DNA of 63,584 bases, filler included, from Stramenopiles sp. TOSAG23-2 (Eukaryota): NCBI GenBank assembly GCA_900128395.1. It is 15 parts of 15 records of this genome, joined end to end, with 100 filler letters (N's around TTAATTAATTAA, not from the genome) between each part and the next. Parts side by side here need not be neighbours in the genome. Positions count along the whole stretch, not along the records: positions 25,021 to 29,909 come from LT650791.1; 14 more parts are not named here. One strand, given 5' to 3'. Below, piece after piece: positions 24,921 to 63,584 of this stretch. Below the pieces are notes generated by a model. It saw only the letters and a list, made by a program, of their open reading frames with translations, did no database searches and was not told the DNA's origin. The position numbers and the translations under genes are program-made. The stretch's first letter is position 1. Each line of letters starts with the position of its first letter.

Positions 24921-25144
24921 NNNNNNNNNNNNNNNNNNNNNNNNNNNNNNNNNNNNNNNNNNNNTTAATTAATTAANNNNNNNNNNNNNNNNNNNNNNNN
25001 NNNNNNNNNNNNNNNNNNNNCGAATAACCAGTCCTGTGTACCTGTTAATCCGGTAGTCGGTAGGAAAATATCATACAGATAAGTACAATAATTAGTAGTC
25101 TAAATAAGAATCACCATATTCAAGAGAAATTTTAAAATGAGGAC

Positions 25145-25174
25145 AATTTAGGCACAGAATTCTGTGCCTAATTT
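25145..25174. other. Palindrome TTAGGCACAG-AATT-CTGTGCCTAA downstream of the recombinase; candidate recombinase site
   Basis: Perfect 24-bp palindrome at 25148-25171. The same arms recur at 27936-27966, 28241-28273 and 28356-28388. Confidence 0.55.
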
Positions 25175-25314
25175 TGAATTTTACATCGGTGTACTTGGTA
25201 GTATATAAATTATGAATTTAGTATGGTAATATGATGGGGGAGTATTTTAATTTTTAATATGTTAAAAAAACTTCCACTAAATAAAAAATAAATATCATAC
25301 ACTTAAAAACTCTT

Positions 25315-27594
25315 TTATGAGTCAACAGGATCATCAACACTCATCGGACCAGTTCCATTAAAATCTACATTACGCTCTTGCTCCAAATATGCACGTATTT
25401 CACCTAGTTGTTCTCCTGTTGGTGTACGTACATTAGCCCTTGTTGTCCAATTATTAATAGAGGCACTAGGAGCAGGAACACTACTACTACCTGTAGTAGT
25501 AGTAGTAGCATTTGTAACAACATATGGGCTCATCCTACGCCGAACTGTGGAAATTGACAATTCTGCTACAGGTTTTGATTTATACCTTTTTGCCGTTTTT
25601 GCAATGTACTTACCATTGTTGGCATTACCAACTATGCCTGTACTGCCTACTTCAAAGTATTCATCAGCTTTGTGAACATTTGCCACATTTGTGACAATGT
25701 TACGGCCAGAAAAATCACGTTTAAAGTTCACATTTGGGTGAACTTTTAGCACCTCTTTTTCTACGCGTAACATTACCTTTTTGTAGCTACGGAATGCTGC
25801 CCTGCATGTTTTACTGTTAAATTCACTGCCTCTAAGTAATTGAAATGGTGGCACCTTCTTAGCTGGATCACCAAATAACCAGTAACTCCATCCTGTTTGA
25901 AATTTTACCGCAGGCATTTTGTAGTTGATAGGAAGAGGAGACCGTAGTTGAAGAGTAGAAGAAGAAGGTGATCTTGAAGTTGATGATTTCATCAAACTTA
26001 CTAATTGATCGAATCTTCTTTCTAACCCTTGGAAACGTTGTGTGGTCCAACGTTTTGTAACAGTTGGTTGGCCTATCCCATACTCTTCAAATGCTTTTGT
26101 GATTGCATTTTTTACATCAATGTCCAGTTTATTTACCTTTTTCAAGACAGCGACATGTGGTGGTAATCCTGTAGCATTGACAATTTGTGGTGATGAGTAC
26201 ATATCATCATTTAATGCTAATTTCAAACGCGGTAAAATTGTTGGATCTCTAAAAAGAAGATTTTGGAATATTTTGCTATTTGCAGGGCATAGCTGTTGTA
26301 TTTTCTCAGCATGAGAAACCACTGAAGCCAATGCTTTAGATAATACACCTTTAAAACGAGCACCAACTTTATTAATAATTCCAGAAAAAACAATATCTAT
26401 TTTTTCAAGAACGTAGTCTTCGTCCTTAATAAAATGAGAAGGTAAAACACTGAACTCTTCACTCATTACTGGTAGTCCTACTATTAACCTTCCAAGATAT
26501 GCATCTTGTGCACCACCAACTGCAGCTTTCACGAAATAACGATCTTTTACGTTGCCCAAGCTATGATCTGCTCGCATACATGTTGCAGCAAAGCTTGGGC
26601 ATTGGGTCGTCCCGCTTTGGGAGTAAGTCCAACCACCTTTCCTTAGACTATGCGACCCTAAGTATTCCCAGTTTGTCCAGCCGAGCTGTTTCCCGGCCAT
26701 TTGCAACGCTGTTGTGAAATGTTTATCCTCATAATTTCCGGGGAACAGCTCTACACCACTTAAATTGTGTGTTAATAAGTATAATCCCAATGATGTTATT
26801 GGGCACACAGCAAATGTTAATGGGTTGGCAAATACTCGTTTGGAAAAGTCATCGGTTGCTGAATCTTTTCCTCTACTCATCTTTGTAGATGTAAAAACAA
26901 TATCCAAATGATCGCGTATCCACTTCATACGAGTAGTAGTTAAACCATTTAGTTGATTTACTCGACACATTAGATTCCATTCAAACGTACTCATAACTAC
27001 ATGTTTATAATCTCCTTTTTTTAAGAAATAATAACATAACTTACAATATTCCTCATAAGTTATTCCTTCTCTGTCGAATCTGACTCGTTTTCCATTTTTC
27101 TCATCAATTTTTTGTATTCTTGTTATCCCCCCAATAATCAGACCCATTAGCTCATCAAACTCTTCAAGACCCTTCACCTTCTGCCATGCGAATATTTTCT
27201 TGAATGCACTGCGATACCCACCGTAATATTCTTTCGTGTAATTGGTACCATCTTCTTTTAACTTAGAACCAAAAAATAATTCAATTGCCTCATACCCGCT
27301 AAGCTTTAGCTTTGCAAGATTAAATTGGCATGCAATTTTTTTCGTATCTGGTAACTTCAATTTTTTTTGTAATGTGTTGGCTTGCCTCTCTGTAAGTAGA
27401 ACAGACGGGTCGTTGTTGGTGCAAAACTCATGAAATTCTTTAATTTTCCGTGTGTACCCGTATAAGCTTGACGCTCCCACGTCTGCGTTTTTCCAAGTTA
27501 GGATTCTAGCTCGAACAACAGCTCTGTTGGTTATTTGCCTTGTATTACGAGATTTTCTTTTCTTTGTTCTTGTTTTTTTTGTTGCATTTACCAT
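25315..27594 (-). mobile_element. Crypton-type DNA transposon tyrosine recombinase (CryptonS/F-like), intact 759-aa ORF
   Basis: The tyrosine-recombinase R..HxxR..H..Y pattern is present: WNLMCRVN, GSHSLRKGG, RADHSLGNVKDRY. It is followed by a helical linker and a C-terminal P..YKMP..GWSYWLFGD..VPPFQLL domain like that of oomycete/diatom Crypton proteins. Element termini are not resolved. Confidence 0.85.
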
Positions 27595-27797
27595 GGTTCC
27601 TTTTTGTTTCCTTTCTTGCTTTTACTTTCTTACTTTTCCTTTCTTCGTTTCGCTCTTTCTATCTATCTATGTCTACATTTCTTTGTTCTTGTTTTTTTTG
27701 TTGCATTTACCATGGTTCCTTTTTGTTTCCTTTCTTGCTTTTACTTTCTTACTTTTCCTTTCTTCGTTTCGCTCTTTCTATCTATCTATGTCTACAA
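27559..27797. repeat. ~119-bp tandem duplication covering the recombinase start codon and 5'UTR
   Basis: The block containing CATGGTTCC (MVNATKKTRTK on the minus strand) occurs twice. Confidence 0.9.
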
Positions 27798-27935
27798 TAA
27801 TAATAATAATAATTATAATATATAATTATGACAGACGAAATAAATCATGATGCCCTCTTTTTTTACATTTGTTATAAGGTTAGTCTTAGGGTATTGTATA
27901 GTTAATATTAGGGTTATAATGCTATCTTCATGCTT

Positions 27936-28471
27936 TGAATTTAGGCACAGTCCCTGCCTAAATTAGAAAAAATTTTCACATTATATTAATGCTATCCCAT
28001 GCTAGCCTATCAACAAAAAGAGGTGAATAGAGTTAGCAAAATAACTAATCAAGCCTGTGTCATTGTAGCTACCCTAATAAAACTTTATAATGGATAACAA
28101 TGGGAAATTTGACTTGTAATGCTATTTCATGGACCGCTTTGATAGGAAAAAAACAGAGATTTATAAAAAAATGAAAGCTTCCTATATCACACTAACAGAA
28201 AATTGTACTTATTTCAATATAACAAAAAAAATCACGTTTTTGACTTTTGGGCAGGAAAACCTGCCTAATTTCAAATAGCAGGCAATAAGCTTAGGATTGA
28301 TTTTAGGTAACAGAAAATTGTACTTATTTCAATATAACAAAAAAAATCACGTTTTTGACTTTCAGGCACAAAACTGTGCCTAAATTCAAATAGCAGGCAA
28401 TAAGCTTAGGATTGATTTTAGTCGTATTCACCTGTTAGAGCTAAATTTTGATGTTTCAGTGTGCCTAAATC
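27936..28471. repeat. Cluster of TGAATTTAGGCA-N7-8-TGCCTAAATTCA-like palindromes, two of them inside a 115-bp tandem repeat (28193-28306 / 28308-28421)
   Basis: Sites at 27936-27966, 28241-28273 and 28356-28388, plus a half site GTGCCTAAAT at 28461. Confidence 0.75.
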
Positions 28472-28562
28472 TTCTAGATTTAGCGATTTTTAAGAATTAT
28501 CCTGGTTAGCCATTAGGGTTAGGAGCAAAATGCCGTCAATTTTCATCAAAAAACCGTTAGGC

Positions 28563-28822
28563 ATAATAAATTAATAAACGTTAGGATATATCTTAAATAC
28601 TAAATACATTCATGTAAAGCAAATGGAACATATACTGTAAATTTAAAAAACACTGACGGATGAATACAAAAAAAAAAAAAACAGAGGCATAATTCTAAAT
28701 AATAAATTAATAAACGTTAGGATATAGGATATATCTTAAATACTAAATACATTCATGTAAAGCAAATGGAACATATACTGTAAATTTAAAAAACACTGAC
28801 GGATGAATACAAAAAAAAAAAA
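28563..28822. repeat. ~120-bp direct duplication (28563-28680 / ~28699-28822)
   Basis: ATAATAAATTAATAAACGTTAGGATA...CTGACGGATGAATACAAAAAAAA occurs twice. Confidence 0.85.
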
Positions 28823-28864
28823 CAACAGAAAATATCATCCCCAGACTGTACACACCATTGTACC

Positions 28865-29698
28865 ATGTATTTCAATCCAAATGATTATAAAGTAAGTGAT
28901 CAATATGATGATCTATCATCAACTACGAATATTATTAATAATCAACAATTTATCACACAAACAATACAAGATATGGAAAATTTCAAAGCAAAATCGAAAT
29001 CACCAAATATTACAAGGCAATTGTTATTCATTGATGATCCTAATGATGATGATGGTGCTAACAATATCAATATACATGATAAACAACGTGTGCATAATGC
29101 AAATATATACAATCCAACAAATACAAATATCAATGTAATCGTGAAAACACGACAAAGACCTGTATCTGCTGCACCAACACGTTCGAAACCATCCACATTA
29201 TCAAATAAAACAAAAGCATATTATTGGAATCATAAATATGAAGAAGAGCAAAAACAACAACAACAAATGATGCATGATAAAGAAAATACAACAACAAATA
29301 ATATTAATATACCGAAATTAAATTTATCTAAGAATAAACAACAAAAACAACGACGACGACGCCCGCAATCAGCAGCTGTAACAAGAAATATCAAGAAACA
29401 CAAAAGTAAAAAACATTTATTAGGTAATTTATCTAAGAATAAACAACAAAAACAACGACGACGACGCCCGCAATCAGCAGTTGTAACAAGAAGTAGAGAA
29501 GAAATGTTAGGACCAAACCACCAATACACACTAAACACAAAAGGTAATTTAGGCCATTGTTTAATGTTAAATAACAATCCATTAGGACGTGAAATGGTTC
29601 TCGATGCATTTAATAAATTACAAGAAGGTCCAAATGGCATTAAAGCATCCCATCCATGGTATACAAAATTTACTAAAATTTTAAACGGGGAAGCATAG
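28865..29698 (+). CDS. Low-complexity basic protein with RPxSA motifs; function unknown
   Basis: 277-aa ORF with RPVSAA, RPQSAA and RPQSAV. Internal in-frame duplication 29321-29387 / 29426-29492. Confidence 0.7.
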   Translation: MYFNPNDYKVSDQYDDLSSTTNIINNQQFITQTIQDMENFKAKSKSPNITRQLLFIDDPNDDDGANNINIHDKQRVHNANIYNPTNTNINVIVKTRQRPVSAAPTRSKPSTLSNKTKAYYWNHKYEEEQKQQQQMMHDKENTTTNNINIPKLNLSKNKQQKQRRRRPQSAAVTRNIKKHKSKKHLLGNLSKNKQQKQRRRRPQSAVVTRSREEMLGPNHQYTLNTKGNLGHCLMLNNNPLGREMVLDAFNKLQEGPNGIKASHPWYTKFTKILNGEA

Positions 29699-29823
29699 AT
29701 ATGAATGATTTGGTATTTGTTCGGTTATTGACATTTATATTAAGGTATTGTGAAATATGTTTTTTTATAAAGTATAAAGTATATCTAAAATGTTATAATT
29801 ATCATAATATAAATATGATATAT

Positions 29824-29909
29824 TGGTTAAAATCTAAGTTATAATATTTTTACACTTCTCGTGTTAAAGTAATATGCTCAATACTCAATCGCAAGAATAA
29901 TATGTTATC
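29824..29909 (+). repeat. Dispersed repeat end shared with 63026-63111
   Basis: 86 bp with one visible mismatch, on two different contigs. This copy runs into the contig end. Confidence 0.88.
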
Positions 29910-49535: not shown

Positions 49536-50219
49536 TCGATGTATACACAGTTATTAGAGAACCTTGATCTCTTATATATATCTATCTATCTATATATCTA
49601 TATATCTATATAGGGTTATATATCAAAATGTAGTGAAGTATACGTCTTTTTCTTCTTTTTCTTACTAATAATATATGGAGATCAATGTATAATAATGTTT
49701 AAAATAAAAAAGATATTGATCCTTATATATATATATATATATATATATAACACACTTGATGTATGTNNNNNNNNNNNNNNNNNNNNNNNNNNNNNNNNNN
49801 NNNNNNNNNNTTAATTAATTAANNNNNNNNNNNNNNNNNNNNNNNNNNNNNNNNNNNNNNNNNNNNGTGTGTGATACATCGTACCGTGGTAGAGTATATC
49901 ATGATCCTTCTTGCATATACACTTTAAAGTGCAATGAATATGCGATATATTATATAAAAAATTCTCTTACTTATATATTTTTTTATTTAAATAAATTTTA
50001 TTAAATTGTGTGTGTAAATTAATTATTTCTATATCAGTATATACGTCTACTTCTCTTGTATATTTTAAAGGATACCATTAAATTTTAAAGGATAGTATAT
50101 TTATTCTCGAGATTGAGTATTGAGCATATTATTTATTTTAGAAGTAAAATTATTATATAAATTAGATTTTAACCATATATATTTTTAATGGTGAGGTTTA
50201 TGATATGTCACACTTTGTT

Positions 50220-63025: not shown

Positions 63026-63584
63026 TGGTTAAAATCTAAGTTATAATATTTTTACACTTCTTGTGTTAAAGTAATATGCTCAATACTCAATCGCAAGAAT
63101 AATATGTTATCCTACTATAGTAAAGCTCTAATGCACCTCTGCAAACTAATACTCTACAACCACAAGTAGGTTTCTATCGGTCCACAACGTACGACGATGA
63201 TGATAATGATTGTTTTTTTTCAATGTTACCACGATGTTAAAAGTGTGTGATTTGTTAGGTATATTATTGACTCAATACCTTTTAAGTTCTTAAATTTCCC
63301 AGTTTGCTTCTGTATTCCTTTAATCACCTTTTTTTTCAAAGTAGCTGCTTCAGGTGATAGCTATTAGGGATTTGGTTGCTCTGCTAACTTACTTGAGATT
63401 AATGCACTGACATGTCCCCAATGTCCTAAACCTGGTGTTGATTTTTCCCAAGTGTATTCCTTTAATCACCTTTTTTTTCAAAGTAGCTGCTTCAGGTGAT
63501 AGATAATAGGGATTTGGTTGCTCTGCTAACTTACTTGAGATTAATGCACTGACATGTCCCCAATGTCCTAAACCTGGTGTTGAT
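63026..63584 (-). repeat. Dispersed repeat with a decayed minus-strand reading frame and a 142-bp-period tandem duplication (63311-63442 / 63453-63584)
   Basis: The first 86 bp match 29824-29909. The minus strand reads STPGLGHWGHVSALISSKLAEQPNP in both copies, followed by TAT TAT in one copy and TAA TAG in the other. Confidence 0.65.

Follow-up and report, generated by a model that had tools for sequence, protein, structure and literature searches.

What does the recombinase of a Crypton recognize on its own DNA? Among eukaryotic DNA transposons, no class is less well understood than Cryptons, and a 4,889-bp piece of the Stramenopiles sp. TOSAG23-2 assembly (GCA_900128395.1; record LT650791.1, positions 25021-29909, 33% G+C) raises this question directly, with short palindromes on both sides of a tyrosine recombinase gene. 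The piece belongs to a stretch of 63,584 nucleotides, hereafter the window, which consists of 15 assembly pieces of ~1.2-4.9 kb each joined via N-TTAATTAATTAA-N linkers and does not represent a single locus. A first-pass annotation had described four loxP/FRT-like palindromes and one half site around the gene, and had read them as sites that the enzyme binds and recombines, so that the DNA between the 3' and 5' palindromes could be excised. All five sites were indeed present as annotated, with two of the palindromes (C and D) lying in tandem copies and some arms being imperfect (Table 1).

Our analysis points to a partly different answer. The motif copies (core TTTAGGCAC) are probably cis-acting, lineage-specific recognition sites, predicted from sequence, of the recombinase of the 3,349-bp Crypton-type transposon in which they lie. 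Of the lox-like interpretation, the element-specific motif was retained, and it appears to co-vary with recombinase lineage, whereas crossover or excision between the palindromes was not upheld.

A palindromic motif confined to the element

Within the window, the motif was concentrated in the non-coding DNA of the element. All four exact copies of TTTAGGCAC, and seven of the 17 matches with at most one mismatch, lay within the element's 1,069 non-coding bp, and at this threshold no match was found in the recombinase open reading frame (ORF) or in the contig flanks. The remaining 10 were single, one-mismatch matches on other contigs. The annotated absence of the motif from these contigs was thus upheld, with no exact copy and no palindromic pair across their total of only ~57 kb. 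Eight of the 15 occurrences of the heptamer TGCCTAA/TTAGGCA in the window fell on the 4,889-bp contig, and the pattern TTAGGCA-N2-16-TGCCTAA was matched twice, versus never in 100 shuffles. Shuffled non-coding element DNA contained on average 0.15 TTTAGGCAC matches (maximum of 3 in 2,000 shuffles), compared to the seven observed. The palindromes are confirmed as real and non-random. AT-rich non-coding DNA with several tandem duplications easily makes short repeats, but an origin of the sites as neutral repeat debris or by chance is scarcely credible given these shuffles and the recurrence of the same layout in three lineages with three different motifs (see below).

The sites flank the gene asymmetrically. 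Site A lies 140 bp past the recombinase stop codon and includes a perfect 24-bp palindrome (25148-25171) within imperfect outer arms, while B-D are found upstream of the gene, at 340-800 bp from the start codon. Sites C and D each combine one good arm with one degenerate (left) arm, and their position in 115-bp tandem copies indicates a single ancestral site, leaving three independent palindromes and a terminal half site.

Ends of the element

The limits of the element were defined by natural filled and empty forms, and by homology to relatives. Parts of the 25021-29909 contig were matched by 20 public runs, the majority of them marine metagenomes, and run contigs were compared with this contig at 90% likeness. 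Three DNA runs, which are marine metagenomes from three studies (X2, X3, and X4), contain a form in which position 25132 runs directly into 28482 onward. The four listed joints include 25132>28487 (X3) and 25107>28478 (X2, X3). Loose ends at 25132 that continue as the right flank were found in X2 and in three X4 contigs (30-letter consensus), and five X2 contigs have loose ends at 28478 preceded by 15 letters of 25114-25128. Since both flanks carry ATTT and the joined form carries only one, the insert corresponds to 25133-28481, with boundaries ambiguous by up to 4 bp. Marine populations include a site that matches in other respects but lacks the element. A 4-bp repeat shared between element end and target is also predicted by the Crypton model, reportedly put forward by Goodwin in 2003, in which a circle is inserted at a target sharing a short repeat.

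Further information came from eight related loci identified in a metagenome scan (L001-L008), seven of which have flanking sequence of 300 bp or more on one side. The contig of L001 (97% amino-acid identity, from another metagenome) terminates exactly at the equivalent of 25133, and DNA homology between the window and L003 (72% amino-acid identity) stops exactly at 28481, so that two independent observations agree with the same ends. The terminal 22-mers (25135-25156 and 28460-28481) are complementary at 17 of 22 positions (77%). All motif copies are found inside the element, in non-coding DNA, and the outermost copies are inverted and 11-12 bp from the ends. Because the terminal 22-mers are inverted, site A can be viewed as the 3' terminal copy together with an inverted partner, and because the ends lie 11-12 bp outside the outermost copies, transposition breakpoints would fall outside the palindrome centres.

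These boundaries bear directly on the possibility that the palindromes are true lox/FRT-type crossover sites, with strand exchange in their centres, either between A and B-D or between the same site in two copies (multimer resolution). The excision proposed between the 3' and 5' palindromes was not borne out, as the ends defined by the empty-site contigs are 25133 and 28481, at the ATTT repeat. Likewise, empty-site breakpoints had been anticipated in the spacers; empty forms were found, but joined at 25132/28482, and none of the four listed joints reflects a crossover in a centre; rare events of this kind may be present among 164 further loose ends. The joint 25154>25186 does start in site A, but it fits an L001-type variant. 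The number of bases between the GGCA and TGCC cores is 10 at A, 7 at B, and 8 at both C and D, with centres of dissimilar sequence, which makes A and B-D poor partners for lox/FRT-type exchange: in known systems, differences of this kind block exchange between unlike sites. Some variants even lack nearly all of the centre, including a site B variant from X2 with perfect 11-bp arms around one base. On the other side, the arms of 11-13 bp and the short centres (8 bp between 11-bp arms at site A, both in the window and in L001) resemble those of lox and FRT, the best fold matches of the recombinase are Flp and Cre, the centres are the most variable part of the sites, and head-to-tail copies exist (L008). 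On balance, we consider lox/FRT-type crossover within the palindromes unlikely.

Variation of the palindromes

Comparisons between copies revealed how the sites vary. The two 115-bp copies differ at nine of 115 positions, eight of which are inside the palindrome, including a paired switch between GGCACA..TGTGCC (D) and GGCAGG..CCTGCC (C). At site A, the window and L001 differ at eight of 30 positions, and the neighbouring sequence is identical. L001 has this site in the same position, where perfect 11-bp arms surround an 8-bp centre of another sequence, and metagenome variants of site B have a changed centre with the symmetry kept. The number of core-to-core bases is constant at site A (10; window and L001) and at C/D (8; window C and D, and L003), while site B has seven in the window but nine in the variants from X2 and X3/X4, as well as in L003. 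Judging from these alignments, the centres of the palindromes change much faster than their surroundings, with both the symmetry and the outer arms kept. A free centre between kept arms is a misfit for a fixed crossover centre, and fits either half sites bound by a dimer or DNA that forms a hairpin.

This second possibility would make the sites folded hairpins or cruciforms, possibly acting as structure-specific single-strand sites comparable to integron attC, or as an origin for a circular copy, and symmetry would matter more than arm sequence. The paired inner-arm changes between C and D, the X2 variant of site B, and the perfect 24-bp palindrome of site A are all consistent with it. However, the outer arm sequence is strongly conserved, a lone half site is found at the 5' end of the window element, L003, and L008, where a hairpin is impossible, and paired changes can also result from repair within a palindrome, without selection. 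This makes a hairpin-based function quite improbable. As a separate observation, the interval from the stop codon to site A is ~250 bp longer in L001 (L001 2380-2760, equivalent to 25175-25310), and includes a perfect hairpin with an 11-bp stem of which the window keeps one half only (25190-25200), and the X2 joint 25154>25186 matches this L001-type arrangement.

Motifs in related recombinase lineages

Five of the seven loci with at least 300 bp of flank show the motif layout of the element. In L003, the terminal half site is found at the same distance from the end, together with one C/D-type palindrome, both at homologous positions, and a homologous B-type palindrome has perfect 13-bp arms. 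More distant loci have the same kind of layout with other motifs. L004 (46% amino-acid identity) and L008 (45%) contain no copy of the window motif and instead have palindromes of the form AATTTCCTACG / CGTAGGAAATT, whose centres span 4-7 bp, with one AATTTCCTACG-type palindrome on each side of the ORF in L004 and three upstream of it in L008. In L007 (33% amino-acid identity), copies and palindromes of ACGTAACA(T) flank the ORF on either side. Exact copies of the lineage 8-mers were found in non-coding DNA (five in L003, five in L004, seven in L008, and eight in L007) and in none of the ORFs. The motifs of the three recombinase lineages (TTTAGGCAC, TTTCCTACG, and ACGTAACAT) are mutually exclusive, with zero copies of each in the other lineages. 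The observed 8-mer counts were never reached in shuffles (0 of 1,000 for each), although these figures are generous since the motifs were chosen after inspection. The motif thus appears to co-vary with the recombinase lineage, as cognate binding sites would, which supports the predicted sites. In L006, with <100 bp of flank, no repeated palindromic motif was found, and viral contigs yielded 36 pattern matches and no relative.

The window and L004/L008 motifs, which are the two best sampled, have the outer five bases in common (AATTT-AGGCAC and AATTT-CCTACG), and the 3' terminal segments are alike as well (TTGTCCTCA... in the window, TTGTTCCTGA... in L004/L008). This suggests that the protein may read one part of the site through a conserved region, and the other through a variable one.

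The same comparisons are informative about whether the motifs might be transcription-factor, promoter, or terminator elements of the host, carried by chance. The location of B-D upstream of the start codon and of A just past the stop codon would suit such elements, and the 5' region also carries ATAGCATTA, a motif common on host contigs. There are 15 exact copies of ATAGCATTA in the window, against ~1-2 expected by a hand calculation from base composition: three upstream of the recombinase in gene orientation (27917-27925, 27987-27995, and 28117-28125, minus strand) and 12 elsewhere. It is also found in the 5' regions of L003, L004, and L008, and is probably a host-wide promoter-type motif used by the element. 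This is where the two motifs part: ATAGCATTA is common on the other contigs and the palindrome motif is absent there, which argues against a host motif. A host motif would also not be expected to change with the recombinase lineage, or to sit at a fixed distance from both element ends. An origin of the palindromes as host regulatory elements is therefore very unlikely.

Proposed mechanism and its weighing

From the observed ends, site positions, and lineage-specific motifs, we infer binding by the recombinase, a circular form, and a role for the internal sites, as follows. The recombinase would bind the terminal motif copies and cut a fixed short distance outside them, with cleavage at the AAAT common to element and target. 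The ends would then be joined into a circle, to be inserted by site-specific recombination at a target sharing AAAT, as in the Goodwin model. The internal palindromes would bind recombinase dimers as accessory sites, possibly helping to pair the ends or controlling the element's own promoter, and would not serve as crossover points of transposition.

Several observations weigh against recognition of these sites by the element's own recombinase. Whether other copies keep the motif had been a key question, and the answer is mixed: L001 and L003 do, while L002 (62% amino-acid identity, with 447 bp upstream) and L005 (with 316 bp downstream) contain no comparable motif. Furthermore, the window and L003 can be aligned at 77% over the whole 5' non-coding region, so conservation of the sites there is not site-specific. 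The motifs were picked from the same data on which they were then tested, so the shuffle figures overstate their significance. A rigid dimer would not readily account for cores 7-10 bp apart. With respect to the ends, the joints have short sides (15-27 nt), matched at 90% likeness. The left flank itself belongs to a repeat, so the "empty sites" may represent paralogues instead of alleles; no copy of this flank (25021-25132) was found on the other window contigs. None of the four listed joints is a circle or tandem junction from 28481 to 25133. In L008, the 3' end is joined head-to-tail to the 5' end: the 3' part of this junction matches L004 until the latter enters unrelated flank, and the 5' part opens with the terminal half site. 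However, the ORF downstream of this junction (L008 1026-2101) is broken into at least three frames, so the junction may be a chromosomal tandem and not a circle; the three upstream palindromes are perfect.

Recognition by the element's own recombinase nevertheless remains our favoured explanation. More broadly, and only tentatively, the CryptonS-like elements of marine protists may share a modular recombinase-site code, with one 9-13-bp motif per lineage, three mutually exclusive motifs so far, and a common arrangement of inverted terminal copies plus internal palindromes. Movement would then proceed via a circle whose junction pairs the terminal copies around the crossover. If true, these would be the first defined recognition sites for any Crypton, and would constitute natural orthogonal eukaryotic recombinase-target pairs which, if specific, could extend the Cre/Flp toolbox. 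For this element, natural filled and empty forms give the exact ends, the gene is intact and lies under poly(A) RNA contigs, a short motif is found at a set distance from each end, and relatives show other motifs in the same layout. This makes the recognition step of a Crypton directly testable with a few oligonucleotides and one protein.

Recombinase gene and other features

The gene had been annotated as a Crypton tyrosine recombinase, and this assignment held. R211, K238, H315, R318, and Y353, the latter being the catalytic Tyr of the KDRY set, are invariant across 18 aligned sequences, and H344 is also kept, opposite a Trp in the other aligned sequences. The ORF has 18 homologues, of which the two named ones belong to the oomycetes Aphanomyces astaci and Lagenidium giganteum. 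An AlphaFold model (pLDDT 74.8) gave structural matches covering residues about 30-430: VIA-align placed Flp first (Z 16.4, rmsd 3.1, 222 residues aligned), then Ndc10 (Z 14.2), XerA (Z 13.8), XerH (Z 12.5), Cre (Z 12.4, 264 residues aligned), and the Tn1549 integrase (6emy, Z 10.9), and Foldseek matched Flp with an E-value of 5e-4. Judged by its catalytic residues and its predicted Flp/Cre-like fold, the ORF is an intact tyrosine recombinase. Pfam assigned it to no family, with two irrelevant weak matches (E above 0.1) and neither a GCR1_C nor a DUF3435 match. Comparison of its sequence with solved structures returned nothing significant, and the best hit of a profile search was Cre (E 0.38). 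Residues 380-700 folded alone (pLDDT 74) yielded no structural match (best Z 4.1), and the oomycete homologues align through this C-terminal region. An ESM Atlas lead from the C-terminal region to a GCR1_C/NDC10_II cluster was set aside, as its score of 0.78 is below the usable level.

Six contigs from a poly(A) RNA library (X15) map onto the ORF; these RNA contigs do not cover the sites or the 5' region of the element, and this gap in cover was not taken as evidence. The other ORFs of at least 80 aa within the element are antisense or low-complexity, and none encodes a reverse transcriptase, a DDE transposase, or any other enzyme. A perfect 119-bp tandem duplication spans the start codon, and its upstream copy yields a short upstream ORF. 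The X2, X3, and X4 contigs all end at 27677, the end of the first 119-bp copy, and the duplication may be recent or an effect of assembly. In the same runs, depth is ~30-50 on 27955-28606, the site-bearing 5' region, versus 4-9 on the ORF (25347-27465). This could hint at extra copies without the gene, with the caveat that the parts of a locus cannot be ranked by contig depth.

The 5' end of the element lies 384 bp upstream of a 277-aa, Asn/Gln/Lys-rich ORF in the right flank (28865-29698), which has an internal 105-bp repeat and no Pfam match. The right flank also includes a 143-bp tandem repeat at 28563-28822, with 98 nt at 100% identity. A dispersed repeat of ~90 bp is found on four pieces of the window (29824-29909, 2301-2352, 50091-50182, and 63026-63111), with at least two copies directly past the 3' end of an ORF, a summed contig depth of 11,000-35,000 in three marine metagenomes, many differing continuations, and no Rfam match on this contig. 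The only Rfam hit on the contig was a chance match far below threshold (HepC_CRE, 23.9 of 140 bits).

Table 1 Features of the element and its surroundings, in window positions.
Feature	Position	Strand	Description
Whole mobile element	25133-28481	minus	3,349 bp; limits from run-contig joints and L001 and L003 homology
Tyrosine recombinase ORF	25315-27594	minus	759 aa, intact; 2,280 of the element's 3,349 bp
Site A	25145-25174		AATTTAGGCAC / AGAATTCT / GTGCCTAATTT; 11-bp arms, 8-bp centre; 12 bp from the 3' element end
Site B	27934-27966		10-bp perfect arms, spacer CAGTCCC; 340 bp upstream of the start codon
Site C	28240-28274		Degenerate palindrome, inner arms GGCAGG / CCTGCC
Site D	28355-28389		Palindrome, inner arms GGCACA / TGTGCC; tandem twin of C
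Terminal half site	28460-28470		TGTGCCTAAAT; 11 bp from the 5' element end
ATTT, flank copy of the 4-bp direct repeat	25129-25132		Read from sequence; single ATTT in the empty form
ATTT, element-end copy	28478-28481		AAAT in gene orientation; L003 homology begins with the same AAAT
Imperfect terminal inverted repeat, 3' end	25135-25156		Pair I10; contains the outer arm of site A
Imperfect terminal inverted repeat, 5' end	28460-28481		Pair I10; contains the terminal half site
115-bp tandem repeat	28193-28421		Two copies, carrying C and D; repeat family D2
119-bp tandem duplication	27559-27796		Perfect, spans the start codon; family D1; single copy in L001

Comparison with known systems

Among site-specific recombination systems, Flp/FRT of the yeast 2-micron plasmid and Cre/loxP of phage P1 use 13-bp inverted arms around a short centre, FRT having a third copy of the arm, and in both the constant 8-bp centre is where strands cross. 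The palindromes described here have similar inverted arms of ~11-13 bp (perfect over 11 bp in L001 and 13 bp in L003). Unlike FRT and loxP, however, their centres vary in both length and sequence, and the breakpoints of the element lie outside the sites.

Tn916 and Tn1549 combine a tyrosine transposase with imperfect inverted ends and a circular intermediate, in which the abutted ends surround a short crossover region, and have additional subterminal sites, in the form of direct repeats, for a second DNA-binding domain. The imperfect inverted ends of our element are alike, and an abutted 3'-5' junction was seen only in L008, where the ORF is broken. These elements are bacterial, though, their similarity is at the level of fold only (Z 10.9), and the internal sites here are palindromes instead of direct repeats.

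Among eukaryotic elements, Starships are giant cargo carriers of fungi with a DUF3435 "captain" tyrosine recombinase, short direct repeats, and, in some cases, asymmetric terminal inverted repeats, according to the parts of the source considered here (PMC13465315). The element shares with them a eukaryotic host, a tyrosine recombinase, and short direct repeats, but not a DUF3435 match by Pfam. The active CryptonF-1_cRei of Chlamydomonas has a terminal CACCG matching its target CAYCG, leaves only the target behind upon clean excision, and inserts near genes, as described in the sections considered of Lopez-Cortegano et al. 2023 (PMC9977147). Similarly, the present element leaves ATTT in the empty form and lies 384 bp upstream of an ORF. 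CryptonF-1_cRei differs in belonging to group F, with GCR1_C, and the same sections describe no internal or terminal recognition motifs for it (PMC9977147).

The element fits a Crypton: its one gene is a tyrosine-recombinase ORF, it lacks a reverse transcriptase, both of its ends carry a short direct repeat matching the target, an empty form is observed, and its copy number is low. It comes closest to the stramenopile group CryptonS, to which it is likened by description only. In the portions of Kojima & Jurka 2011 considered here (PMC3212892), CryptonS is described as lacking GCR1_C and having its own conserved C-terminal region, shared by oomycete and diatom elements, and the majority of CryptonS end in TATGG with repeats of 5-6 bp. 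Likewise, the element has no GCR1_C by Pfam, a long conserved C-terminal region, and oomycete relatives. It departs from most CryptonS in having a 4-bp AAAT repeat and no TATGG termini: TATGG/CCATA is found on the contig at 25114, 25222, 25523, 26078, and 28972, and not at the element ends.

The same portions describe Cryptons as having no terminal inverted repeats, and report no conserved nucleotide sequence (PMC3212892). Up to 2026, the Crypton literature as represented by the portions considered describes short direct repeats as the only terminal feature, and states that neither conserved DNA sequences nor recognition sites are known (PMC3212892, PMC13465315). The word stem "palindrom" was not found in these texts, though the supplementary table of Crypton termini (PMC3212892) may describe the ends of single CryptonS families, and a literature search returned no paper on Crypton binding sites. 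Against this background, the imperfect 22-bp inverted ends (17/22) and the array of palindromic motifs set the element apart from published Cryptons, in a departure from the published description and not from the mechanism. Relative to Cryptons as described in these sources, inverted terminal motif copies and lineage-specific palindrome arrays are new features.

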